From Pseudomonadota bacterium (lineage in GTDB: Bacteria > Pseudomonadota > Gammaproteobacteria > Steroidobacterales > MnTg04), in the NCBI GenBank assembly GCA_022560735.1, contig JADFSO010000009.1, positions 8,519 through 72,518 on the forward strand: 64,000 bases of DNA. Reading direction: 5' to 3'. A program made the position numbers and the translations under genes. Numbering within the stretch: position 1 is the first letter of the stretch; the number at the start of each line of letters is the position of its first letter. The notes under the pieces are model-generated. The model was not told where the DNA came from, searched no databases, and was given only the letters and a program-made list of their open reading frames with translations. Of this stretch, positions 3,604 to 53,753 are shown one piece after another.

Positions 3604-4818
3604 TCAGCCTGCCATCGACCACTGTTCGCGGATCTTCTTTTCCTGCTCCTCGACGTGTTTCGACCAGCGTGCAAGAAAACGATAGGCGCGATCTTGCGGC
3701 AGCGGTTTACAAACGTAATAACCCTGGGCGATATCACAACCGACCGAGCGCAGGAAATTCAGGGTGGGTTCGGACTCCACGCCTTCGGCGCAGACATTCA
3801 ACCCAAGCGCATGGGCCAGGTTGACTACAGCGGCAACCACGGATCTGGCCTCTTCACTGCGCCGAACCTCGAGAATAAAACTCGTGTCTACCTTGACCTC
3901 GGAAAACGGCATCCGGTAAAGCATTATTAACGGCGACGAAGCCGTACCAAAATTGTCGAGGCAAAGCTCTACCCCTTTCTTGCGCAGCCGTTTGAGAATA
4001 GCCAGGCTTTGCTCCGCATCCGTCATCGCCGAAGTTTCCGACAGCTCGAGCATCAGGCGGTCGGCCGGAACGTCGTAACGCGCCAGCAATTCCTCGACCA
4101 TGTCGGGGAAATCATCCTCCACCAGTTGGCGAGCCGACACATTGACACCGACATTGACTTCCTCGCCTTTTTCGGCCCAGGCCGCATTCGCTGCAAGCAC
4201 TTGCTCCAGCACGCAGCGAGACAATTCACCGGACAGACCGAGTTCCTCTGCCTTCGCCAGGAACGACCCCGGCATCATCAGGCCCTGGACCGGATGCTGC
4301 CACCTCACGAAGGCTTCCGCGCCACACATATAGATCGGACCGGTCAGGCGCAGACGCGCCTTCGGCTGGTAATGCACAACCATCTGGCCATCGTCGATGG
4401 CATTCAATATCAGCTCTTTGGTAAACCGCATTTCACCGCCGGGTACAGCCGTCAGCAGCATTTCCAGGTCATCCAGCATGACTGGCTTGGTCAGTCTGCC
4501 GGCCATCCGCAATCCCAGGCTGCGCCCCAGTTTTTCGGCCGATTTCAGCACCCGGTCATCCAGACCGCTGATCAGCAGGATTGCGGCCTGGCACTCCTCG
4601 TCCGCGAGATACCGAATCAGCTGGATCCCGTCAGCGTCCGGCATCTGCAGATCCATGATGATATAGCTCGGGTCGAACTCCTGTATCGCCCGCCTGAAAT
4701 GATCGGCATCATCGGCCAGCCTGACTTCAAATCCCTGCCCGCGCCCGACCTCGCCGATGAAACGCATAATTTCCGCTTCATCGTCGATTACCAGCAGCCG
4801 TTTTTCGGGTTCGTTCAA
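3604..4818 (-). CDS. Response-regulator receiver + EAL domain protein (c-di-GMP phosphodiesterase-like)
   Basis: N-terminal REC (LLVIDDEAEI..DLQMPDADG). EAL-domain landmarks are YQPK, EAFVRW, VNVS, ELSET, KVDTSF, AEGVES and QGYY, but DDFGTG is replaced by DNFGTA. Confidence 0.85.
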   Translation of the reverse strand: MNEPEKRLLVIDDEAEIMRFIGEVGRGQGFEVRLADDADHFRRAIQEFDPSYIIMDLQMPDADGIQLIRYLADEECQAAILLISGLDDRVLKSAEKLGRSLGLRMAGRLTKPVMLDDLEMLLTAVPGGEMRFTKELILNAIDDGQMVVHYQPKARLRLTGPIYMCGAEAFVRWQHPVQGLMMPGSFLAKAEELGLSGELSRCVLEQVLAANAAWAEKGEEVNVGVNVSARQLVEDDFPDMVEELLARYDVPADRLMLELSETSAMTDAEQSLAILKRLRKKGVELCLDNFGTASSPLIMLYRMPFSEVKVDTSFILEVRRSEEARSVVAAVVNLAHALGLNVCAEGVESEPTLNFLRSVGCDIAQGYYVCKPLPQDRAYRFLARWSKHVEEQEKKIREQWSMAG

Positions 4819-20731: not shown

Positions 20732-20813
20732 ACTTGGCGTGCGAGTATTTCGGGCTGCGACGAGCCGATAACGCGACCAAACCACAGTATTGTTTTTTGT
20801 CCAAGAGACCACC

Positions 20814-21185
20814 ATGAGCAACAATCAGACCACAGCCGGAATCATTGGTAGCGCCCTGTTGGCGCTGACCGGTGCAACCTGTTGCGCCCTGCCGATTGCC
20901 CTCGTCGCCCTCGGGCTGGGTGGCGTCGTGGCCTCGGCCGTATCGGCGTTACCGTGGCTGGGAGTGCTCGCCGAATACAAGGCCGTCACCTTCGGCCTCA
21001 CCGCCGCGATCCTCGGCTATAGCTGGTGGCGCATCCGGCGCTCGAGCCTGTGCGAGATCGGCGAAAGCGGGCGATTACGCGTACAGAAGATTATCCTGTG
21101 GGTCATCAGCGCATTATTTGCCGCTTCCGTTTTCGCGGCCTATGCGCTTTTCCCGCTGACACTGTTTCTGGACAGCTTTGACTGA
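20814..21185 (+). CDS. MerT-like inner-membrane metal transporter
   Basis: Start MSNNQ at 20814. Three hydrophobic helices with a vicinal Cys pair in helix 1 (LTGATCCALPIALVALGLGG), as in MerT. The cytoplasmic loop has one Cys (SSLCEIG) instead of a pair. Confidence 0.6.
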   Translation: MSNNQTTAGIIGSALLALTGATCCALPIALVALGLGGVVASAVSALPWLGVLAEYKAVTFGLTAAILGYSWWRIRRSSLCEIGESGRLRVQKIILWVISALFAASVFAAYALFPLTLFLDSFD

Positions 21186-21201
21186 CCCTGCGAGGAACGA
21201 T

Positions 21202-21498
21202 ATGAAACGCTTGTTTTTTCTTTTGACCTTATTGTTTTTTACGAGTCAGACGCTGGCCGAAGATGTGCATTATCATCTCGTGGTTAGCGGCCTGTCCTGT
21301 CCTTTCTGTGTTTACGGTGTCGAGAAAAAACTGAAAAACCTCGAGGGCGTCGTGGATATCGAGTCGGAACTCGAAACCGGCGAGTTCTTCGTTAAAGTCG
21401 AAGACGGCGCGTCGCTTTCTGAGGAGACTATCGAGGAATTGGTCAGCAAGGCCGGGTTTACACTGGTGACCTTCGAAGCAATCGTCCTGGGAGATTGA
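21202..21498 (+). CDS. Periplasmic heavy-metal-associated (HMA, MerP-like) protein
   Basis: Start MKRLFFLLTLLFFTSQTLA (signal peptide) at 21202 with a GAGGAA SD. Ferredoxin-like HMA fold signature with CxxC as GLSCPFCVYGVEKKL. Confidence 0.65.
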   Translation: MKRLFFLLTLLFFTSQTLAEDVHYHLVVSGLSCPFCVYGVEKKLKNLEGVVDIESELETGEFFVKVEDGASLSEETIEELVSKAGFTLVTFEAIVLGD

Positions 21499-21500
21499 GC

Positions 21501-22385
21501 ATGAGGCCAGCAGGCGCCCTCGCCAGCCTCATTATCCTGCTGGCGCCGGTTCATGCGCCGGCAGCGCCGATCACCTTCAGCACTGCACTGCCCGTCGGCG
21601 AGGGCAAGTTCATCAACCGCGAACAGCTGGTATTTACGCGTTCGGGCGACGATCCAGGCAACAACGGGCTCGTCGTTGATGTGGACGCGCTCGTATCCGT
21701 CCTCGCCTACGGCGCCAGCGAAAAACTGGCGCTGTTTGCAACACTGCCATACCTGAAAAAGGAACTCAGGCAATCCGGTGGCGTACGCCGTTCGAGCAAA
21801 GGCCTGGGAGATCTGACGATTTTCGGGCGCTACACGCTGTTCCAGCGTGATGGTATCGGCCGGACGCTGAGGCTCGGGGCAATCGCAGGGATCAAGGCCC
21901 CGACTGGCGATGACGACGAAACCGATGCTCTCGGACGCCTGCCGATCCCGCTGCAATCCGGGACCGGTTCGTGGGACAGTTTCATCGGCGTAGTTGCCTC
22001 CTCCGAGACTTTGCGAGGTGGATTCCACAGCCAGCTCACCTACCAGGCGAAAACGGCGGCCAACAACTTCGAAGCCGGCGATGTGAGCCGGCTCGATCTG
22101 TCCTGGCAACGCCGGGTATGGCCCAGGGCACTCCAACCGAGCAGCAATGCGTTTCTCTACGGCGTACTCGAAGCCAACATCATCCACAGCAGGAAATCCA
22201 CGGTATCAGGCCAGGTCAACGACAACTCTGGCGGCACGACGATATTCATCACCCCCGGCATTCAATACGCCAGCAAGAAACTGATACTCGAAGCGGCCGT
22301 CCAGATCCCTGTCTATCAGGATCTGAATGGCACCGCCCTTGAGAACGACTATGTACTCAGGGCCGGTTTCCGGGTGAACTATTGA
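21501..22385 (+). CDS. Outer-membrane beta-barrel (MetA-pathway/transporter-like family)
   Basis: Signal peptide MRPAGALASLIILLAPVHAPA, alternating amphipathic strands, and a C-terminal aromatic ending ...RAGFRVNY. ATG at 21501 preferred over TTG at 21495 because of the GGGAGA SD. Confidence 0.6.
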   Translation: MRPAGALASLIILLAPVHAPAAPITFSTALPVGEGKFINREQLVFTRSGDDPGNNGLVVDVDALVSVLAYGASEKLALFATLPYLKKELRQSGGVRRSSKGLGDLTIFGRYTLFQRDGIGRTLRLGAIAGIKAPTGDDDETDALGRLPIPLQSGTGSWDSFIGVVASSETLRGGFHSQLTYQAKTAANNFEAGDVSRLDLSWQRRVWPRALQPSSNAFLYGVLEANIIHSRKSTVSGQVNDNSGGTTIFITPGIQYASKKLILEAAVQIPVYQDLNGTALENDYVLRAGFRVNY

Positions 22386-22494
22386 ACGGACCAGGCCCGG
22401 GCGACCCCGGGAATCACGCGTATTCTGACTTCTCGATGCGCCACCGGCTTGTACACGGTTGTGCGGCTACCTGGTTCGAAACTCCTTGTCGGAT

Positions 22495-22520
22495 ACAGAA
22501 AACCCCGCGCAAACGGGGTC
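22495..22520 (-). terminator. Rho-independent terminator of the SWIB gene
   Basis: On the minus strand: CCCCG-TTTGCG-CGGGG followed by TTTTCTGT, about 60 nt downstream of the stop at 22578. Confidence 0.5.
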
Positions 22521-22577
22521 CTCCGTCAAGAATCCCACCAGCCACCGTCAGAAAAGACGTGGCAGGGGTGCTGCTGG

Positions 22578-22904
22578 CTATTCCACGTTCGCACTGACCA
22601 CAGCGGCCATCTGCATCATATCTATGGTTTCGCCTTCCTGCATGTTACGCAGGTCGGTAAGATTGCCCGACTTGCTCGTGGAATTTGTGTTCTTGAACAC
22701 CTTGAGCAGTTTTGCATCGGCGACGATGTACTTCCCTGCGTTTTCCGGTGTGCCGTTGACAGATTTGGTTTGAAGCTTATTGGCTTTTATATAATCCCAA
22801 AGTCTTTTTGTAATCTCGGTGCGGGGCAGTTCGCTTACTCCACAAAATTCAGCCAAATCAGCTTTAAGTTTAACCGGTTTTTTAAGTCCTTTTAGTTCAG
22901 CCAC
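22578..22904 (-). CDS. SWIB/MDM2-domain protein
   Basis: 108 aa, GTG start with an AAGGAG SD. Core SWIB motif ELPRTEITKRLWDYIKANKLQ ... ADAKLLKVF. Local AT-rich context. Confidence 0.7.
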   Translation of the reverse strand: MAELKGLKKPVKLKADLAEFCGVSELPRTEITKRLWDYIKANKLQTKSVNGTPENAGKYIVADAKLLKVFKNTNSTSKSGNLTDLRNMQEGETIDMMQMAAVVSANVE

Positions 22905-22988
22905 AACAAGCTCCTTACATAATTAAGGTCAGTAATAATATATCCGTCGAATACGACAAAGCGGACAGACCTCACGGTTTCCGGAACC

Positions 22989-23012
22989 ATAGTGTGAACC
23001 CGGTCACACTAT
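22989..23012. promoter_or_regulatory. CRP/Vfr-type binding site upstream of the SWIB gene
   Basis: Perfect inverted repeat ATAGTGTGA-ACCCGG-TCACACTAT, containing the CRP core TGTGA-N6-TCACA. Its centre is about 96 nt upstream of the SWIB start codon. Confidence 0.5.
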
Positions 23013-23153
23013 TTCCGTAATCGAAAGAGTTCTGCAACAAGCGGCCGCCAATTTCACCGTATCGGGATACATAATTCTATCACTTCGACGTGACTGAGCG
23101 CGAGCCGAAAAAGGCCTCAAATCGCTGTGACAAGCCGGTCGCGGTTGAAATTG

Positions 23154-23852
23154 CTACTGTGAAACCCAGTCGGCCTTGTTCGCCAGCTTTTTTGCAGCGG
23201 CAAGCAAATCCTCGGCAGACAAGCGAATCCTGTAGTCAGGGTTCACAAAGTCAAAAACAATCTCGCCTGAGCGATCGATGACATAAACCGCCGGCACGGT
23301 AAGGGCCTTGTGCTTGCCGATCGAAGAGTCCGCGTAATCACGGCCTTTTTTCTTCAGGTTATCGATCAACCTCTCGTCTACCCTGAACGCAGTACCCAGC
23401 GCCATTGCCGCATTGAGATCCGCATCCGAAAGAATGAGATAGTCCAGTCCGTCAATACTCTCCTGGGTTTCTCTCTTGAGACTCGAGTACAGCAAATCCG
23501 GCCTGTCGTTACTCAGGAACAAGACGTCGAAACCATTCTTTTTGAGCTCGGGAATGGCAAAGCGCATGTTCGAGAGCTGCATGTTGCAGAAGGGGCACCA
23601 GCCGCCCCGGATCGAGATCAGGATCGTTGGACGTTCGAGGTTTTCCGGGTCAAACACGAAGGGTTCGTCGTCAACCGTGCGCACGGTAAATGCGGGCGCC
23701 CTGTCGCCGGTTGCAAGCGGTGTCGTTTCCTCTGCGCTCGCAGGCAATGCCGCATAATCGTCCGCGACTGCCCGGTTGGATTGCGAGTAGACAAAGGTCC
23801 CCAATAACAAAGCCAGAATGGCCAGGTAGACGAGGTTTCTGCTAAAGCCCAT
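23154..23852 (-). CDS. Membrane-anchored AhpC/TSA-redoxin family protein
   Basis: Start MGFSRNLVYLAILALLLGTFVYS at 23852 with an AAGGAGAA SD. Redox motif GGWCPFCNMQL. The track start at 23921 lacks an SD. Confidence 0.75.
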   Translation of the reverse strand: MGFSRNLVYLAILALLLGTFVYSQSNRAVADDYAALPASAEETTPLATGDRAPAFTVRTVDDEPFVFDPENLERPTILISIRGGWCPFCNMQLSNMRFAIPELKKNGFDVLFLSNDRPDLLYSSLKRETQESIDGLDYLILSDADLNAAMALGTAFRVDERLIDNLKKKGRDYADSSIGKHKALTVPAVYVIDRSGEIVFDFVNPDYRIRLSAEDLLAAAKKLANKADWVSQ

Positions 23853-24069
23853 GGAAAGTTCTCCTTGTTCGATAATCCACCAGACCATCGAGGGCGAGAT
23901 AATATTACAGCGGCTCGCCAATCAACAGCAGTCCACGGCCGATATTGGCCATGATGCCTGGCGCCTGTCATTTGTTGCCGCTGGTTAATATCCAGCCATG
24001 TAATAACGCACTTGAATTTCGGGTCTGGTGCTTGTTGAATGTAATGCAATCATCGCCTGAGGATTCGAC

Positions 24070-24627
24070 GTGCGCCATGCCCTGATACTGTCAGCCATCC
24101 TGTCAATGCTGCCGTTTGGTTCTTCGATCGCTGCCGGGAACATCGCACCAGACTGGACGCTCGCCGATCCTGACGGGCAAACGATTCGCCTGCAGGATGA
24201 AGTGGAGGCGCAAGCGACCATCCTGTTTTTCTGGGCTACCTGGTGTCCGTATTGCAAGGCATTATTCCCGCATCTGCAAAGCATTCGCCTCGAGTACGGG
24301 GATCGCGTCCGGATCCTGGCCATCAATTTCCGTGAAGATGGAGACCCTGCCACCTTCATCAACGAAAGCGGTTACGACGTCACGCTGTTGCTCGATGGCG
24401 ACGAAGTTGCCGAGTTATACGACATCTACGGAACACCGGGCGTAATACTGCTGGATAAGGATCGCGTAATACATTTTGACCTGCGCCACATCCCACCAAT
24501 CGAGCCGCCGGACCTCGGCAAACCGGCCAGCCACAAACGCAAGGCCGCCTACCGGGCGCCGTACTGGGCCGCCGAAATACGCAAGAGCCTCGACGCGATC
24601 ATTGCCGAGCATTACGAAATACCATAA
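24070..24627 (+). CDS. TlpA-like periplasmic thiol:disulfide oxidoreductase
   Basis: 185 aa with a signal peptide. Thioredoxin motif FWATWCPYCKALFP and YGTPGVILLD (cis-Pro loop). Confidence 0.8.
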   Translation: MRHALILSAILSMLPFGSSIAAGNIAPDWTLADPDGQTIRLQDEVEAQATILFFWATWCPYCKALFPHLQSIRLEYGDRVRILAINFREDGDPATFINESGYDVTLLLDGDEVAELYDIYGTPGVILLDKDRVIHFDLRHIPPIEPPDLGKPASHKRKAAYRAPYWAAEIRKSLDAIIAEHYEIP

Positions 24628-24670
24628 GCACGCGGACGATACCGGCGTTTATTGATTGGCGACCAATTAA

Positions 24671-24714
24671 TGGAGCGGGTGATGGGAATCGAACCCACAT
24701 TCTCAGCTTGGGAA
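24671..24714 (-). repeat. Displaced 3' half of tRNA-Gly (island attachment-site direct repeat)
   Basis: 44/44 nt identical to 27854..27897 (tggagcgggtgatgggaatcgaacccacattctcagcttgggaa). Sequence diverges immediately beyond. Confidence 0.9.
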
Positions 24715-25046
24715 TCCTGCTTAGCCTACTCGGCACAAAAGGTCACAACAACTAACAACAGAAAATTCAACCACTAACAGCATTGAACTTATTGCTGTTT
24801 GTGGCCAGTTATGGCCCTTTATTGTGTTGTAGTGCCCCACCAGTGTCCCACACGGTCTGGCATGTTGTTTTTATCGGCTGGAATTCTTTGACTGTCATTT
24901 TTGGCAGACTTTGATAGCCATGCTGAGCGACAGTAAATCGTTGCATAAACTACAGAGGCCGAATATACGTACGCAGTCGTGCCATGGCTGTCCTCAACAG
25001 AGTGCTTGCAATGAGGAGGAGTCCATATACGGACATTAAAAGTAAA

Positions 25047-25065
25047 CCCCGCCACGAGGGCGGGG
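25047..25065 (-). terminator. Rho-independent terminator oriented for minus-strand transcription
   Basis: On the minus strand: CCCCGCC-CTCGT-GGCGGGG followed by TTTACTTTTAAT. On the plus strand no T tract follows the hairpin. Confidence 0.5.
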
Positions 25066-25111
25066 CTGATTTAAGCCGGTGAGTTATCCCTCGGTGCGCA
25101 GGACCAAGTCT

Positions 25112-25402
25112 TTAGTGTCCAAACGTGATTGGTGGCGTAAAGCTTCCGTTAGGAACTCCGGTTATGTTGGGATCATTTTCGAATATCGGAACGACTGGAA
25201 AATTAGAGTTGATCTCGTCGCACACACCGTCGCCGCTCGAGTCGTAATTCGCCACAGAGAAGTGTAGAATCAGACGCAAAGTGGGCTGTCCGTCCGCGTT
25301 TAGAGCCCTTGGCCCAATATGTCCTCCAACAGCGCCGAGAGCACCAAGTCCCAGTATCGTCCACACCGGTGGCGCTTCAGCCGATTGGGCGGTTTCGATC
25401 AA
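25112..25402 (-). CDS. Doubtful small ORF (96 aa) overlapping the 5' end of the EF-hand gene in antisense
   Basis: ORF-track entry. Its C-terminal part has a TSP3-like acidic loop (YDSSGDGVCDEIN), and the terminator at 25047..25065 is correctly placed. I see no clear SD and no recognisable family. Confidence 0.2.
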   Translation of the reverse strand: MIETAQSAEAPPVWTILGLGALGAVGGHIGPRALNADGQPTLRLILHFSVANYDSSGDGVCDEINSNFPVVPIFENDPNITGVPNGSFTPPITFGH

Positions 25403-27520
25403 GTCCGCCTGGAAACCGGCATGGACCTGATGGCGTTAGATCAGCTTGATCAGAAGCTCTGGGCAACACTCGGGTGCCCCACCCACGGGCTGGAAATCGA
25501 TGCCAAGACCCTTGAGCTGATTGACGTCGACGGAGACGGACGCATTCGCGTACCCGACATCATCGCCGCAGTGCAGTGGGCCGGTACTGTCTTACGGGAT
25601 CCAGATGACCTCACTAAAAGGGCGAGTTCCTTGCCGCTTGAGGCCATCGACGAGCGAACTGAGGAGGGCAGGCAATTGCTTGCTTCGGCGAAACGGGTCC
25701 TCCTGAACCTGGGGAAGGGCGAGGCTACGGTAATTACCCCGGAAGACACGGGGAACATCGAACGGAACCTCAACGAGACGAAGTTTAACGGCGACGGGAT
25801 CATTCCCCTCGCCTCAGCGGACGATAAGGCGACTAAGGCCCTGATCGAAGCGATCATGGAGTGCGTTGGCTCAGAGCAAGACCGATGCGGCGATCCTGGG
25901 GTCTCGCAGGAAAAAGTCGAAGAGTTCTTCGCGCAGGCCCGGGCCTACTCGGCCTGGAGGCAGAAGGCGGAGAACGATCGGGACAACATTCTCCCGTTCG
26001 GTGACGCGACGGCCGCGGCCGCGGCGGTCTTCAGAGCCGTGAAATCGAAGGTGGACGATTACTTCACCCGTTGCCGGCTTGCGCAGTTCGACCCGCAGGC
26101 GGCTGCGCCGCTAAATCCGCGCGAAGCACAGTACGAGGCGCTTTTATCGACGGAGCTTTCGGCCACAACGGAAGAGATGGCTGCCTTTCCTCTCGCTCAC
26201 ATCGCACCCGGAAGGGCCCTCCCACTCGAGGAGGGCGTAAACCCAGCCTGGGTCGCTAGGGTAGCGAAATTGCGCGCCGAGATCGTGCGGCCGATGTTCG
26301 GGGACACGGACTGCGTAGAGGACGAACAATGGATGAGCCTGAGCAGCAAGTTCGCGGCCCACGAGGACTGGTTGAACGAGAAGGAAGGCGCTGTCGTCGA
26401 CGTGCTAGGCCTTGGGCGTGTGCGTGAGATCCTAGCCGGCGACGGCGAAGCGGCCGTAACCGCGCTGATCGAGAAGGATAAGGCGCTCGAGTCCGAAGCA
26501 AACGCCATTGTCTCGTTAGACAAGCTCATCCGCTACTATCGTGATCTGTTCACCCTCCTAAACAACTTCGTGTCGTTCCACGATTTTTACACGCCCGAGA
26601 CCAAAGCCATTTTCCAGGCGGGTACCCTCTATCTGGATGGACGGAGCTGCGAACTCTGCGTGAGGGTGGACGACGTGGAAAAGCACGCAAGGCTCGCCGC
26701 CCTGAGCCGCACTTACCTCGCCTACTGCAGTTGCGTGCGTAAGAACGGCGCCGAGCAGCAGATTAACATTGCCGCGGCGTTCACTAATGGCGACGGAAGC
26801 AACCTTCGGGTCGGCCGAAACGGTATCTTCTACGACCGCCAGGGGCAAGACTGGCATGCCACCATCGTCAAGGTGATTGAGAACCCGATCAGCGTCCGCG
26901 AGGCCTTCTGGGCGCCGTATCGGCGCGTCGGGCGAATGGTAGGGACGCAAGTTGAGAGGTTCGCAGCCGCTCGGGAAAAGCAAGTCGAGGCGAGTGCGGC
27001 CAAAGGCATCAGCGCTGTTCTGGAGGAGGCCGAGCCGCAGTTCGACGTGGCCAAGTTCGCGGGTATCTTCGCTGCTATAGGGCTCGCCATCGGAGCCATC
27101 GGCACCGCGATCGTAGCTACGGTAACAGGCTTTCTGCACCTCATGTGGTGGCAGATGCCGTTGGCGGTCATCGGTCTCTTCTTCGTCATCTCCGGACCCT
27201 CGATGGCCGCCGCATATCTGAGCCTGCGCAAACGCAACCTGGCTCCCATCCTCGACGCGAACGGCTGGGCGGTGAATGCGCGCGCCGTGATCAACCTCCC
27301 CTTCGGCGCCTCGCTCACTAGCATCGCCAAGCTCCCCGAGGGCTCCGAACATTCGCTGAAGGATCCGTTCGCCGTCAAGCGCAAGCGTTGGAAGCTCCTC
27401 CTCGCGTTGTTTGTGCTTTTAGTCGCAGCAGGAGTTCTCTGGCAAATGGGGACTCTGAGTGTATGGTGGGAGCGCATCAGCACCGGTGAGACGGCCGCCG
27501 CGGTCGAAGAGCCAGCCTAA
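25319..27520 (+). CDS. Orphan 733-aa EF-hand / C-terminal multi-TM protein (function unknown)
   Basis: Long uninterrupted ORF. Canonical 12-residue EF loop DVDGDGRIRVPD (25523..25558). Large soluble N-terminal region. Hydrophobic helices FAGIFAAIGLAIGAIGTAIVATVTGFL, MPLAVIGLFFVISGPSMAAAYL and WKLLLALFVLLVAAGVLW. In-frame stop at 25301 just upstream of the ATG. Confidence 0.8.
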   Translation: MSSNSAESTKSQYRPHRWRFSRLGGFDQVRLETGMDLMALDQLDQKLWATLGCPTHGLEIDAKTLELIDVDGDGRIRVPDIIAAVQWAGTVLRDPDDLTKRASSLPLEAIDERTEEGRQLLASAKRVLLNLGKGEATVITPEDTGNIERNLNETKFNGDGIIPLASADDKATKALIEAIMECVGSEQDRCGDPGVSQEKVEEFFAQARAYSAWRQKAENDRDNILPFGDATAAAAAVFRAVKSKVDDYFTRCRLAQFDPQAAAPLNPREAQYEALLSTELSATTEEMAAFPLAHIAPGRALPLEEGVNPAWVARVAKLRAEIVRPMFGDTDCVEDEQWMSLSSKFAAHEDWLNEKEGAVVDVLGLGRVREILAGDGEAAVTALIEKDKALESEANAIVSLDKLIRYYRDLFTLLNNFVSFHDFYTPETKAIFQAGTLYLDGRSCELCVRVDDVEKHARLAALSRTYLAYCSCVRKNGAEQQINIAAAFTNGDGSNLRVGRNGIFYDRQGQDWHATIVKVIENPISVREAFWAPYRRVGRMVGTQVERFAAAREKQVEASAAKGISAVLEEAEPQFDVAKFAGIFAAIGLAIGAIGTAIVATVTGFLHLMWWQMPLAVIGLFFVISGPSMAAAYLSLRKRNLAPILDANGWAVNARAVINLPFGASLTSIAKLPEGSEHSLKDPFAVKRKRWKLLLALFVLLVAAGVLWQMGTLSVWWERISTGETAAAVEEPA

Positions 27521-27594
27521 ACAGAAGGTTGATCTCGCTCCTAGTGGCTGGCGGGGTAGAGTTAGGGATGATTGGGCTCTAGTCTGAATGTCGC

Positions 27595-27709
27595 CTTCGG
27601 GTCGGTAAGCGACCGGGTCAATTTGAGATCACCGAGCAAGCTCGCCAGGCGATTCGCACATGGATTGACGAGGCAAACTTAGGAACAGCTCAGTACTTGT
27701 TTCCGAGCT
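27595..27709 (+). pseudogene. Tyrosine (phage-type) integrase fragment
   Basis: Hand translation LRVGKRPGQFEITEQARQAIRTWIDEANLGTAQYLFPS matches the conserved mid-section of tRNA-targeting integrases (..PVQFEITEQTR..W.....YLFPS). There is no N-terminal part and no catalytic RHRY region. Confidence 0.6.
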
Positions 27710-27715
27710 GTATCA

Positions 27716-27838
27716 ACGGCGCGGATCATTCTGCACTCCAACCGCGGCACGCAGTTTACCAGCGACGAATACCAGCGTTTCCTGCAAGGTCATAACCTGG
27801 TTTGCAGCATGAGCGGGGTGGGTAGTTCCGCGGACAAC
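27716..27838 (+). pseudogene. IS3-family transposase (OrfB) fragment
   Basis: Hand translation IILHSNRGTQFTSDEYQRFLQGHNLVCSMSGVGSSADN matches the DDE-core block HSDRGSQYTS...SMSRxGNCxDN. Only about 40 codons remain, and they end at the tRNA 3' end. Confidence 0.6.
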
Positions 27839-27853
27839 ACATATTGTTTTTAT

Positions 27854-27927
27854 TGGAGCGGGTGATGGGAATCGAACCCACATTCTCAGCTTGGGAAGCT
27901 GATGTTCTGCCTTTGAACTACACCCGC
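27854..27927 (-). tRNA. tRNA-Gly (anticodon CCC)
   Basis: The reverse complement folds as a cloverleaf: acceptor GCGGGTG/CACCCGC, D stem GTTC/GAAC, anticodon stem TCAGC/GCTGA with loop TTCCCAA, T arm GTGGG-TTCGATT-CCCAT, discriminator U plus encoded CCA. Confidence 0.9.
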
Positions 27928-28066
27928 TAAGCTTTGCTTCCAGTAGTTTAACCAGACAGCCAGGGGACAGACTACAGTTATTGCCAGTTGACCCGGAAAA
28001 GTCGCTAGGCGGAAACAGTTTAGTACAAACCAAAACCGCCGTCTGTTCCCTGTTTTTGCCCTATTT

Positions 28067-51548: not shown

Positions 51549-53753
51549 ATGAATCCACGTATTGCCGCGGTACTTTTCACCGCCAGTCTTTTTTTAACGG
51601 GATGTTTCTCGGACGCAGACAAGAAAGATATAGTCGGCAGCATGGCGCCGGCCCCACCGCCGGGCGGTACAGCGCCGCCACCGCCTGCGACTGGCTTCAG
51701 GGCGATTTACGTGCTCGCCGCGGGTGCGTTGCCATACCCGAACTCGCTGTTTTTCAACGGCAGCACCGATGGCACGATGAACCTGCCGATACTCGCCACA
51801 TCGCCGCTTAACGAATCGCTAAACACCCTCGACGGTTTTTCGACTACCCAGTATTTCAACCAGATTTTCAGCGCGCCGATTAATCCTGCGACCATCATTG
51901 GCGGCGTTACGGTCAATGTGCTCGAGGTGGTCGAGGACCTGGCCACGACGGCCACCGTTGGCGTGGTCGGGGTTTTGATACCGGGCGTGGACTACAGTGT
52001 CGGCCTCTCCCCGGATCTCGATGCGGGTACGACGACCCTGCAGGTTCGGCCCTTGACGCCGCTCAATCCTTCGAGCTCTTACCTGGTGTTGATGACGAAC
52101 GGCATTGCCGACATCTCCGGAAGCGCGGCAACGGCGGACACCGATTATGCCGGGCTGCGCGACGCGGCGCTTGCCGGCATCACCCTGCCCGACCCCACGC
52201 AGGATGGCCTGCGGCAACTGATCGGCGCTCACCTTGCGATCGCGGGGGCGATCGGGATGGACCCGGCATCGATTATTTCCAGCGCCAATTTCCGCACCCA
52301 GTCGATCGGCAATGTCATGGCCGCGGCTGCAGCACAGACCGTGGGACAGGGCGCCGTGGTCGGACCATTCCCCGGTGCCGGGGTAGTGCCGGGATGTCTG
52401 ACCCCGATTCTGACTACACTCTGCGTGCTGCCGCCGAGCGCGATGCCGAGCGGCAATGCTGACATTTACGTCGGTCAGCTTTTGGTCGATTACTACAGCG
52501 ACACACCGGCAATCGATCCGGTAACCGGCCTGCCGGACACCAATGACGTTGCCGTCATCGAGTCGATATGGACCGGCGCGCCCTTCACGCTCGACCCGAC
52601 GGCCGCACCGACCAATTTTGTGCATCGTTTCAACCCGGTCCCGGTCGCAACGACCACGCTCGGGATTCCGTTGATAATGACCGTACCCAACGCGGCCTCG
52701 GCCTGGATGCAGGCGGTCGGTGCGCCACCGCCAGGCGGCTGGCCGGTGATTGTTTTTTCGCATGGCATTACCCGCAACCGGACCGATATGCTGGCGCTGG
52801 CCGAACCGTTCGCCGATGCCGGTTTCGTAGTCGTTGCGATCGATCACCCCTTGCATGGACTGACCGAGCCGAACCCGCTGGTCGATCCCACCGGGATATT
52901 CTTCCAGGCGGGAAGCGAGCGTACTTTTGACCTCGATGTCATCGACAACGCGACTTTCGCGCCTGGCCCTGACGGGCTGATCGACATATCGGGGTTCCAC
53001 GCATTTCTCAACCTGGGCAACCCGCTGACCATCCGCGATGCCTGGCGCCAGGGCGCAGTCGATCTGCTCGCGCTGGCTCGCACGATCGGCATCATCGATG
53101 TCGATGGCAACGGCAGCCCCAACGATGCAGCGGACCTCGATGGCAACCGGGTGCATTTTGTCGGCCAGTCGCTGGGCAGCATGATCGGCATCAATATGTT
53201 GAGCCACCAAAACAACGATTTCGAATCGGCGACACTGGGCGTGCCCGGTGGCCTGATTCTGCAACTGGCGCTGGATTCGCAATCGTTCGGCGCGCTGGTT
53301 ACCGGCGCGCTCGCGGCGCAGGGCCTGACGCCGGGCACATCGTTGTTCAATAACACCCTCCGTGACATGCAAACCGCTATCGATGGGGCCGACCCGTGGA
53401 ACTTCGCGGCCGGGGCCCTGGGCCAGCCGGTACACATGATCGAGGTTATCGGCGATGCGACCGTGCCCAATAGCGCGACCGAGCGGCTGATCGATGTCAT
53501 GGGGCTTCCCGGCATCTCGGCTGCGGCCTGTGGTGGAGCGGCCCCCTGTCCGAACTTCGTCTCACAGGGTGTGGTTCGTTTCACCGAGGGCAGCCATGGC
53601 TCGCAGCTCGATCCCACGGCCAGCCTCGCCGCGACTATCGAGATGATGACGGAGACAGTCGTCTTCCATGCCGGTAACGCGCCAGCCGGAATCCCCGGCG
53701 GGGGACTGGTCATCCTGATCAGCAATCCGGCGGTGATTTCGACCCAGCCGTAG
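51549..53753 (+). CDS. Lipoprotein lipase/esterase of the bacterial virulence-factor-lipase type (N-terminal Pro-rich domain + alpha/beta hydrolase)
   Basis: Lipobox LFLTGC. Pro-rich linker. GxSxG nucleophile elbow FVGQSLGSMIG. Candidate Asp (VIGDATVPN) and His (EGSHGS). Confidence 0.6.
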   Translation: MNPRIAAVLFTASLFLTGCFSDADKKDIVGSMAPAPPPGGTAPPPPATGFRAIYVLAAGALPYPNSLFFNGSTDGTMNLPILATSPLNESLNTLDGFSTTQYFNQIFSAPINPATIIGGVTVNVLEVVEDLATTATVGVVGVLIPGVDYSVGLSPDLDAGTTTLQVRPLTPLNPSSSYLVLMTNGIADISGSAATADTDYAGLRDAALAGITLPDPTQDGLRQLIGAHLAIAGAIGMDPASIISSANFRTQSIGNVMAAAAAQTVGQGAVVGPFPGAGVVPGCLTPILTTLCVLPPSAMPSGNADIYVGQLLVDYYSDTPAIDPVTGLPDTNDVAVIESIWTGAPFTLDPTAAPTNFVHRFNPVPVATTTLGIPLIMTVPNAASAWMQAVGAPPPGGWPVIVFSHGITRNRTDMLALAEPFADAGFVVVAIDHPLHGLTEPNPLVDPTGIFFQAGSERTFDLDVIDNATFAPGPDGLIDISGFHAFLNLGNPLTIRDAWRQGAVDLLALARTIGIIDVDGNGSPNDAADLDGNRVHFVGQSLGSMIGINMLSHQNNDFESATLGVPGGLILQLALDSQSFGALVTGALAAQGLTPGTSLFNNTLRDMQTAIDGADPWNFAAGALGQPVHMIEVIGDATVPNSATERLIDVMGLPGISAAACGGAAPCPNFVSQGVVRFTEGSHGSQLDPTASLAATIEMMTETVVFHAGNAPAGIPGGGLVILISNPAVISTQP

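Follow-up and report, generated by a model that had tools for sequence, protein, structure and literature searches.

We analysed a 64,000-nucleotide (nt) stretch of contig JADFSO010000009.1 (positions 8,519 to 72,518; GenBank assembly GCA_022560735.1, Pseudomonadota bacterium), hereafter the window, and focused on an open reading frame (ORF) that encodes a 733-amino-acid (aa) protein and lies alone in the remains of a small genomic islet at a tRNA-Gly gene. The protein carries an EF-hand-type loop in its N-terminal part and a membrane module with three predicted transmembrane (TM) helices at its C-terminus. It belongs to a large, multi-phylum family without a family model, a solved structure or a paper among the libraries searched. 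A first-pass annotation, made from the sequence alone, had described the ORF as intact and as the cargo on which selection acts. Indeed, no internal stop was found, and the ratio of non-synonymous to synonymous substitution rates (dN/dS) relative to own-clade relatives is 0.14-0.36, which supports selection on the cargo gene: the ORF is kept under purifying selection. The features of the gene and its product are the following.

25319-27520, plus strand: ORF of 733 aa with an ATG start and an uninterrupted frame; member of a large family that no family model matches
25523-25558, plus strand: EF-hand loop DVDGDGRIRVPD, residues 69-80, canonical at positions 1, 3, 5, 6, 8 and 12
25781-25915, plus strand: degenerate EF-like pair, loops 155-166 (FNGDG(V/I)I) and 188-199 (DRSGxxG(V/I))
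25934-26593, plus strand: central all-helical domain, residues 206-425, without fold match
26594-26893, plus strand: small beta domain, residues 426-525, with conservation among the highest in the protein; its Tudor/SH3-like matches are insignificant
26894-27013, plus strand: long stalk helix, residues 526-565, running from the beta domain to the membrane in the AlphaFold model
27053-27229, plus strand: TM1-TM2 hairpin, residues 579-637, from hydropathy, model and alignment
27230-27388, plus strand: basic, conserved TM2-TM3 loop, residues 638-690, predicted to be cytoplasmic
27389-27457, plus strand: TM3, residues 691-713; the short tail behind it varies and is predicted to be extracellular

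Judged by its sequence, the loop formed by residues 69-80 is an EF-hand-type loop and a putative Ca2+ site. It shows the ligand pattern of such loops, with oxygen ligands at positions 1, 3, 5 and 12, a glycine at position 6 and a hydrophobic residue at position 8. A relaxed form of this pattern, D-x-[DN]-x-D-G-x-[ILV]-x3-[DE], occurs a single time in the protein and was obtained in 88 of 200,000 shuffles of its sequence. Residue conservation was counted over 85 diverse homologues, and the loop is retained in nearly all of them: position 1 is D in 83/85 and position 3 is D or N in 83/85, while position 5 is D in 84/85, position 6 is G in 77/85, position 8 is I, V or L in 85/85 and position 12 is E or D in 84/85. 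The surroundings of the loop in the AlphaFold model, as assigned by DSSP, comprise a helix at residues 62-68, a short strand at 75-77 corresponding to loop positions 7-9, and a second helix at 78-91.

No recognisable EF-hand partner of loop 69-80 was found in the protein, and EF-hand proteins are absent from the best 50 Foldseek matches. PDB sequence and profile searches returned weak EF-hand matches only; in the profile search, residues 133-199, which cover the degenerate pair, align to the EF-hand pairs of polcalcin and CaBP (E 0.04-0.2). A comparison with the calmodulin profile gave a probability of 12.5% and is uninformative. When 62 members of the family were compared with Pfam, an EF-hand signal was the sole recurrent one, present in 7-13 members and always below threshold (best E 0.0015). 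The 733-aa protein itself scores 12.4 bits against EF-hand_7, for which the cut-off is 30, and thus does not reach the Pfam EF-hand threshold. The homologues from A. vinosum (D3RQN6) and Azospira are named 'EF-hand domain-containing protein' in UniProt.

The C-terminal part of the protein was earlier described as having three to four hydrophobic helices. Their coordinates match those obtained here by hydropathy and from the AlphaFold model, but the helices number three, not four: residues ~579-603, 611-637 and 691-713 (nt 27053-27127, 27149-27229 and 27389-27457). TM1 is rich in Gly and Ala, with the consensus GxxAAIGxAxGxIGxA, and TM2 contains a conserved ISGPSM kink in which P627 is invariant. 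The loop between them is uncharged, follows the consensus L-x-x-W-x-x-P-L and lacks a GMN motif. The TM2-TM3 loop carries the motif R-N-L-x-P-x-L-D-A-N-G-W-A-x-N, with R639, L645, W650, A651, N653 and P673 invariant, whereas TM3 and the tail are weakly conserved. A hydrophobic N-terminus was seen in 0/85 members and no signal peptide was found, while K and R residues accumulate behind TM2 and ahead of TM3. Because of this absence of a signal peptide and this charge distribution, we infer an N-in, C-out topology in which the N-terminal ~570 residues, including the EF-hand, would be cytoplasmic.

Such a module might only hold the protein at the membrane. A Ca2+-stabilised scaffold without transport activity, with TM helices acting as an anchor and an EF-hand that binds Ca2+ structurally or not at all, would be consistent with the long, elongated helical domains, with their weak and non-specific similarity to helical-bundle and BAR-like proteins, with the lack of obvious charged or polar pore-lining residues in the TM helices, and with the poor conservation of TM3 and the tail. 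We consider it unlikely, given that TM2 and the TM2-TM3 loop are highly conserved (P627, R639, W650 and N653 are invariant), which exceeds the need of a passive anchor, and that no conserved partner gene is present nearby.

The TM hairpin also bears on the name 'phage holin family protein', which NCBI gives to the Desulfobulbus elongatus homologue WP_028317089 and which would make the family one of holin-like lysis or export proteins. Sub-threshold matches to PF07332 (Phage_holin_3_6) do fall on TM1-TM2 in 3/9 C-terminal segments, with a best E of 5e-4 (20.5 bits), and in 1/62 full-length members. However, all of them lie below the 28.4-bit cut-off; the C-terminal segment of the window protein reaches 10.8 bits, and the full-length protein gives no match. 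The D. elongatus protein has no holin match in Pfam, NCBIfam or PHROGs, so that the PGAP name was not reproduced, no homologue was found in the phage records, and no endolysin, lysis or prophage neighbours were seen. Gly/Ala-rich TM segments commonly yield spurious matches, and a cytoplasmic domain of ~570 residues is not a known feature of holins. At best, the name traces to sub-threshold PF07332 matches on the TM hairpin, and a holin-like role is hardly to be expected.

The AlphaFold model of the full-length protein has a predicted local distance difference test score (pLDDT) of 92.3 and a predicted template-modelling score (pTM) of 0.80; the C-terminal module modelled separately has a pLDDT of 91.0. 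The first-pass annotation had proposed a Foldseek search with such a model. Neither model has a match in the PDB at E <= 1e-3, and the full-length model has none in BFVD at the same threshold. The top-ranking matches, to non-specific helical bundles and Tudor/SH3-like barrels, all have E >= 0.036, and their Foldseek probability is at most 0.38 in the PDB, with one BFVD match at 0.63. The predicted fold is therefore without a significant match in the PDB (both models) or in BFVD (full-length model).

Conservation within the family is maximal in the beta domain, in TM2 and in the cytoplasmic TM2-TM3 loop. G435, L437, Y469, G499 and D506 of the beta domain are invariant, as are A529 and P533 across the family alignment. 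A membrane-interface enzyme, acting for example in lipid or envelope modification with Ca2+ as cofactor or regulator, could be read from this pattern: conservation among the soluble parts is highest in the beta domain and the loop, and D440, R442, H456, Y469, R500, N501, D506, R639 and N653, all invariant or nearly so, might form an active site. Pfam, NCBIfam, PDB sequence profiles and Foldseek returned no catalytic family or fold, though, and the Cys residues of a possible Cys-His site have been lost independently, with hydrophobic replacements, so we regard an enzymatic role as improbable. Two specific sites were considered and rejected. The cysteines of a candidate Zn or Fe-S site, C444/C447/C470/C472, are lost independently of one another and replaced by L, V or I, and a Cys-His-Asp catalytic centre is unsupported by any family or fold search.

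The strict EF-loop pattern is matched by 123 of 150 cluster representatives, and the architecture is uniform among the members listed; the remaining 27/150 are fragments or full-length members that depart from the strict pattern, some through single loop substitutions. One cluster representative of 398 aa (P0247) has residues 1-166 fused straight to 549-726, the helical and beta domains being absent; this short form may reflect a deletion or a faulty assembly. Elsewhere in the window, a 734-aa ORF at 51549-53753 (plus strand) contains an IDVDGNG motif. It was considered as a paralogue of the 733-aa protein and is unrelated to it despite the near-equal length (best local E 0.068).

The protein has no match at threshold in Pfam, NCBIfam, PADLOC or PHROGs, and literature searches by accession and keyword returned no paper on the family. 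The earlier statement that no named family can be assigned thus holds in Pfam, NCBIfam and PADLOC. The label 'orphan' is right in that sense but not in another, since the protein has more than 7,700 homologues across phyla. A word-index search gave 7,766 of them, an exhaustive search gave 2,756 clusters at 50% identity, 1,028 of these with E < 1e-30, and at least 569 loci were confirmed in species-representative genomes. The sources name these proteins 'hypothetical protein', 'EF-hand domain-containing protein' and, once, 'phage holin family protein'. Among the matches listed, loci belong to Gammaproteobacteria (Chromatiaceae, Thioalkalivibrio), Betaproteobacteria (Azospira, Thauera, Nitrosomonas) and Alphaproteobacteria, and further to Desulfobacterota, Syntrophales, Verrucomicrobiota, Planctomycetota, Bacteroidota, Actinomycetota and others. 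Identity to the 733-aa protein is still ~50% between phyla. Outside its own clade, the closest relatives among the matches listed come from Desulfobacterota and not from other Gammaproteobacteria, which implies horizontal transfer. In addition, a full-length homologue with 53% identity lies on a contig binned with an archaeon (L040, contig LNJE01000025.1 of a Candidatus Methanofastidiosum metagenome-assembled genome); this is either an inter-domain transfer or a binning error.

The immediate surroundings of the gene in the window consist of remnants of mobile elements between two direct repeats, together with a tRNA gene and a segment shared with another locus.

24667-24714, strand not applicable: left 48-nt direct repeat, att-like, a duplicate of the 3' part of tRNA-Gly plus 4 nt
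24715-27849, strand not applicable: inserted islet of 3,135 bp, missing from the relative L089
25045-25067, minus strand: GC-rich hairpin, terminator-like on this strand, with a 9-bp stem, 7 GC pairs and a T-rich tail
25046-27607, plus strand: segment in common with locus L005 at 97% nt identity, the chromosomal context of L005 being wholly different
27598-27729, plus strand: tyrosine integrase fragment of ~44 aa, in a frame open from 27523 (tblastn E 2e-7, 52% identity)
27689-27826, plus strand: core fragment (rve) of an IS3-type transposase, ~46 aa, in a frame open from 27521
27850-27897, strand not applicable: right 48-nt direct repeat, within the tRNA gene
27854-27927, minus strand: tRNA-Gly(CCC), the integration target (Rfam tRNA, 69.8 bits)

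The two repeats agree at 47/48 positions. A single metagenome scan with a 24-mer spanning the left junction led to contig Ga0114949_10013649 (L089), in which the left flank runs straight into an intact tRNA-Gly(CCC) and the repeat has a single copy. Positions 103-4051 of L089 correspond to window positions 24714-20765 at 95.8% identity, and L089 1-4051 as a whole matches window 20765-24714 plus 27850-27933, the 66 nt upstream of the tRNA being loosely similar. The direct repeats and this empty site show that 24715-27849 is a 3,135-bp insertion, and the empty site indicates that the islet is polymorphic in the environment. The regions that the integrase fragment matches bear the annotation phage integrase or tyrosine-type recombinase; the fragment itself (27598-27729) has no Pfam match. 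The transposase fragment corresponds to PF00665 (rve, E 1e-4, profile positions 55-101 of 102), and the other ORFs between the repeats have no family match. Since the integrase is cut to ~44 codons, the element is no longer autonomous. The islet is a common type of degraded tRNA island, in which a single gene has been kept while the rest decayed, and the first-pass annotation was right in describing the ORF as the sole intact gene of a decayed tRNA islet, as the repeats, the empty site and the integrase and transposase fragments all show. A 17-nt partial repeat, 88% identical, is also present at 24861-24877 and 27840-27856, with the att repeat directly beside its right copy; it may stem from an older junction or be due to chance.

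Upstream of the ORF, no riboswitch or small RNA was detected, Rfam giving tRNA only, and no sigma-70-like promoter was found for the ORF. The hairpin at 25045-25067 forms the left edge of the segment shared with L005, whose 97% nt identity begins at 25046. The L005 protein is 96% identical to the 733-aa protein, and the flanks are not shared. Loci L085-L087 match just ~25229-27528, at 89% nt identity. L085-L087 and L001-L003 each lie in other contexts, often near insertion sequence (IS) fragments; such fragments adjoin the gene in L001-L003, L085, L087 and A. vinosum.

L005 also contains imperfect palindromes of ~82 nt at 692-773 and 4515-4596, with a short form at ~1885-1917, which flank an NmrA-like gene and the EF-hand gene; copy A has a folding z of -3.95. 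The window retains only the first ~22 nt of this palindrome (27590-27611). From their sequence the palindromes look like repetitive extragenic palindromes (REP) or attC sites, with a core that misfits attC. An integron cassette was rejected by the criterion of R'' RYYYAAC and R' GTTRRRY cores with intI nearby: the (G/A)TTCAAA ends misfit the R' core GTTRRRY, the window holds no complete copy, and the 12 kb of L005 show no integron integrase.

The genes that flank the islet in the window are ordinary ones and encode an M16 peptidase, a DUF255 thioredoxin-like protein, MerT/HMA-like proteins, two AhpC/TSA redoxins, an acyltransferase and BipA. At 20790-22385 (plus strand), a MerT-like membrane protein, an HMA (MerP-like) protein and a Phenol_MetA_deg-type outer-membrane protein follow one another in what looks like a metal-handling cluster without merA. 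A 108-aa ORF at 22578-22904 (minus strand) contains a SWIB/MDM2 domain (Pfam E 1.4e-17), a domain best known from eukaryotic chromatin-remodelling proteins; it lies within a stretch of lower GC content (~0.50-0.53) between the metal-related genes and the redoxins.

Delivery by a tRNA island, which the first-pass annotation had made part of its reading, holds true for this locus but is peculiar to the window. Among 60 homologous loci, a tRNA gene lies within ~8 kb in few and within 1 kb in one only (L046). In Allochromatium vinosum DSM 180 (L090, CP001896.1 3180977-3183340), the homologue ADC63720 (787 aa) is flanked on one side by Tn5-type and DDE transposases and a DUF4427 gene, and on the other by a phosphoglucomutase gene that has the same orientation and begins 33 bp downstream. 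Of the 34 locus pairs with at least 70% protein identity, 23 retain synteny, which indicates stable vertical inheritance in most lineages, where the gene is mostly a stand-alone chromosomal gene. All-against-all clustering of the ORFs from 85 loci revealed no conserved neighbour or operon partner; the neighbour clusters in common are generic ABC, histidine-kinase and response-regulator families only. The nearest neighbours on each side of ~80 homologues, taken from crude ORF calls, amount to 141 ORFs that match 132 unrelated Pfam families, largely of housekeeping type and none of them in more than 4 ORFs, and that include malic enzyme, pyruvate kinase, methyltransferases, GNATs, ABC transporters and two-component proteins. 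As to carriage by other replicons, 50,697 phage records gave no match and 72,556 plasmid records gave one fragment. The latter (L088) is an unannotated piece of ~145 aa with 46% identity on Aeromonas salmonicida pBY3 (NZ_CP060033.1 61370-61804), a conjugative plasmid, near tetR(Y)/tet(Y).

These contexts bear directly on the proposal that the protein is a stand-alone abortive-infection or defence effector, in which Ca2+ or another infection cue would act through the EF-hand on the TM hairpin, permeabilise the membrane and kill the cell. A large sensor joined to a small TM hairpin is reminiscent of the TM effectors of conflict systems, 2/9 C-terminal segments give SLATT matches at noise level (E 0.07-0.7), the gene is mobile in its own clade, where it sits in a tRNA islet beside IS remnants, and its patchy distribution suggests horizontal transfer. 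However, no family of PADLOC-DB v2 matches the 733-aa protein at E <= 1, and the 25 matches to PADLOC models among the 141 flanking ORFs represent about a dozen ORFs, mostly generic (MotB, IscS-like, methyltransferase), the neighbours being mainly metabolic or regulatory. Cross-species synteny is kept in most lineages, and ~50% identity across phyla with a fixed architecture is atypical of fast-evolving defence genes; to this are added the lack of a phage homologue, the single plasmid-borne fragment and the empty literature searches. Thus, the abortive-infection role put forward as an example by the first-pass annotation finds no PADLOC match and no defence enrichment among the nearest flanking ORFs, and we consider a dedicated defence function quite unlikely. 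A stand-alone membrane effector is possible as an architecture, but its abortive-infection part is unsupported. The enrichment of homologues near defence genes that this idea predicted was not found among the nearest neighbours; on the other hand, neither was the conserved housekeeping operon that was named as evidence to the contrary.

The reading that we favour, which we hold to be plausible rather than probable, is that of a membrane protein that responds to Ca2+ and serves the physiology of the cell rather than dedicated defence, brought to this site by the tRNA islet. As to the mechanism, a Ca2+-gated pore or channel is possible but doubtful. The EF-hand would sense a rise in cytoplasmic Ca2+, and the signal would reach the TM hairpin by way of the beta domain, the stalk and the conserved TM2-TM3 loop; the hairpin would then alter ion permeability or the state of the membrane, most likely as a homo-oligomeric channel or pore. 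Its role would more likely lie in Ca2+ or membrane-stress homeostasis than in dedicated phage defence. That the family might form an unrecognised class of Ca2+-gated pores or channels, with a new fold, a cytoplasmic EF-hand sensor and a glycine-zipper TM hairpin in a single polypeptide, and spread horizontally over at least eight phyla, is a rather doubtful extension of this proposal.

Several observations weigh against the favoured reading. The loop was first described as a textbook EF-hand, which is correct for the six canonical and conserved positions but not for position 9, occupied by the near-invariant Arg77 (81/85). PROSITE PS00018 has no match in the 733-aa protein, because an Arg at position 9 is outside the allowed [DENQSTAGC]. 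In loops 155-166 and 188-199, acidic ligands are missing at position 1, at position 12 or at both. The alignment shows no acidic selectivity motif between TM1 and TM2, and the three TM helices could serve as an anchor only. Moreover, the patchy distribution over phyla at ~50% identity implies horizontal transfer, and the mobility of the gene in its own clade is more in keeping with an accessory or conflict gene than with a housekeeping gene.

The idea that bacteria signal through cytoplasmic Ca2+ is an old one, but only a few such sensors and effectors are known. The family described here offers a concrete and testable candidate Ca2+ effector, with thousands of members and a conserved EF-hand on the predicted cytoplasmic side. 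If it is indeed a class of Ca2+-gated pores or channels, its members would be among the first direct cytoplasmic Ca2+ effectors in bacteria, acting in the homeostasis of Ca2+ or of membrane damage, or as suicide effectors. Culturable and genetically tractable carriers are at hand in Allochromatium vinosum DSM 180, Azospira oryzae and Desulfobulbus elongatus.

Compared with known systems, the islet is like tRNA islands with P4-type tyrosine integrases in its insertion at a tRNA 3' end, its 48-nt repeat, its adjacent integrase and its empty site. It differs from them in measuring only 3.1 kb, in an integrase reduced to ~44 codons and interrupted or followed by an IS3 fragment, and in that its sole intact gene also occurs elsewhere without an island. 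PF07332 (Phage_holin_3_6, YqjE-like) shares a Gly/Ala-rich hairpin with the 733-aa protein, the matches covering profile positions 20-101 of 116, whereas the protein is about six times larger, with a big cytoplasmic domain and no phage context. SLATT proteins and the TM effectors of CBASS and Pycsar likewise combine a cytoplasmic sensor and a small membrane module in one polypeptide, yet the present family has no PADLOC match, no nucleotide-signalling partner genes and no defence neighbourhood.

The likeness to EF-hand domains (PF13499, PF13405, PF00036) lies in the ligand pattern and, as modelled, in the frame of two helices and the strand at loop positions 7-9. The differences are that only one loop of the three is canonical, that the Pfam threshold is not attained and PS00018 fails, and that the domain is part of a 733-aa membrane protein without any match for its other ~650 residues. 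Finally, the overall layout recalls that of CorA/ZntB channels, by analogy and not by homology, the comparison being one of architecture. There is no sequence or fold similarity and no GMN motif, and the family adds a third TM helix and an EF-hand. The CorA pore is gated by the binding of cations on its cytoplasmic side, and what the two would have in common is a cytoplasmic N-terminal sensor, a long stalk helix and, at the C-terminus, a TM hairpin whose outer loop is short and whose second helix is followed by a basic segment.

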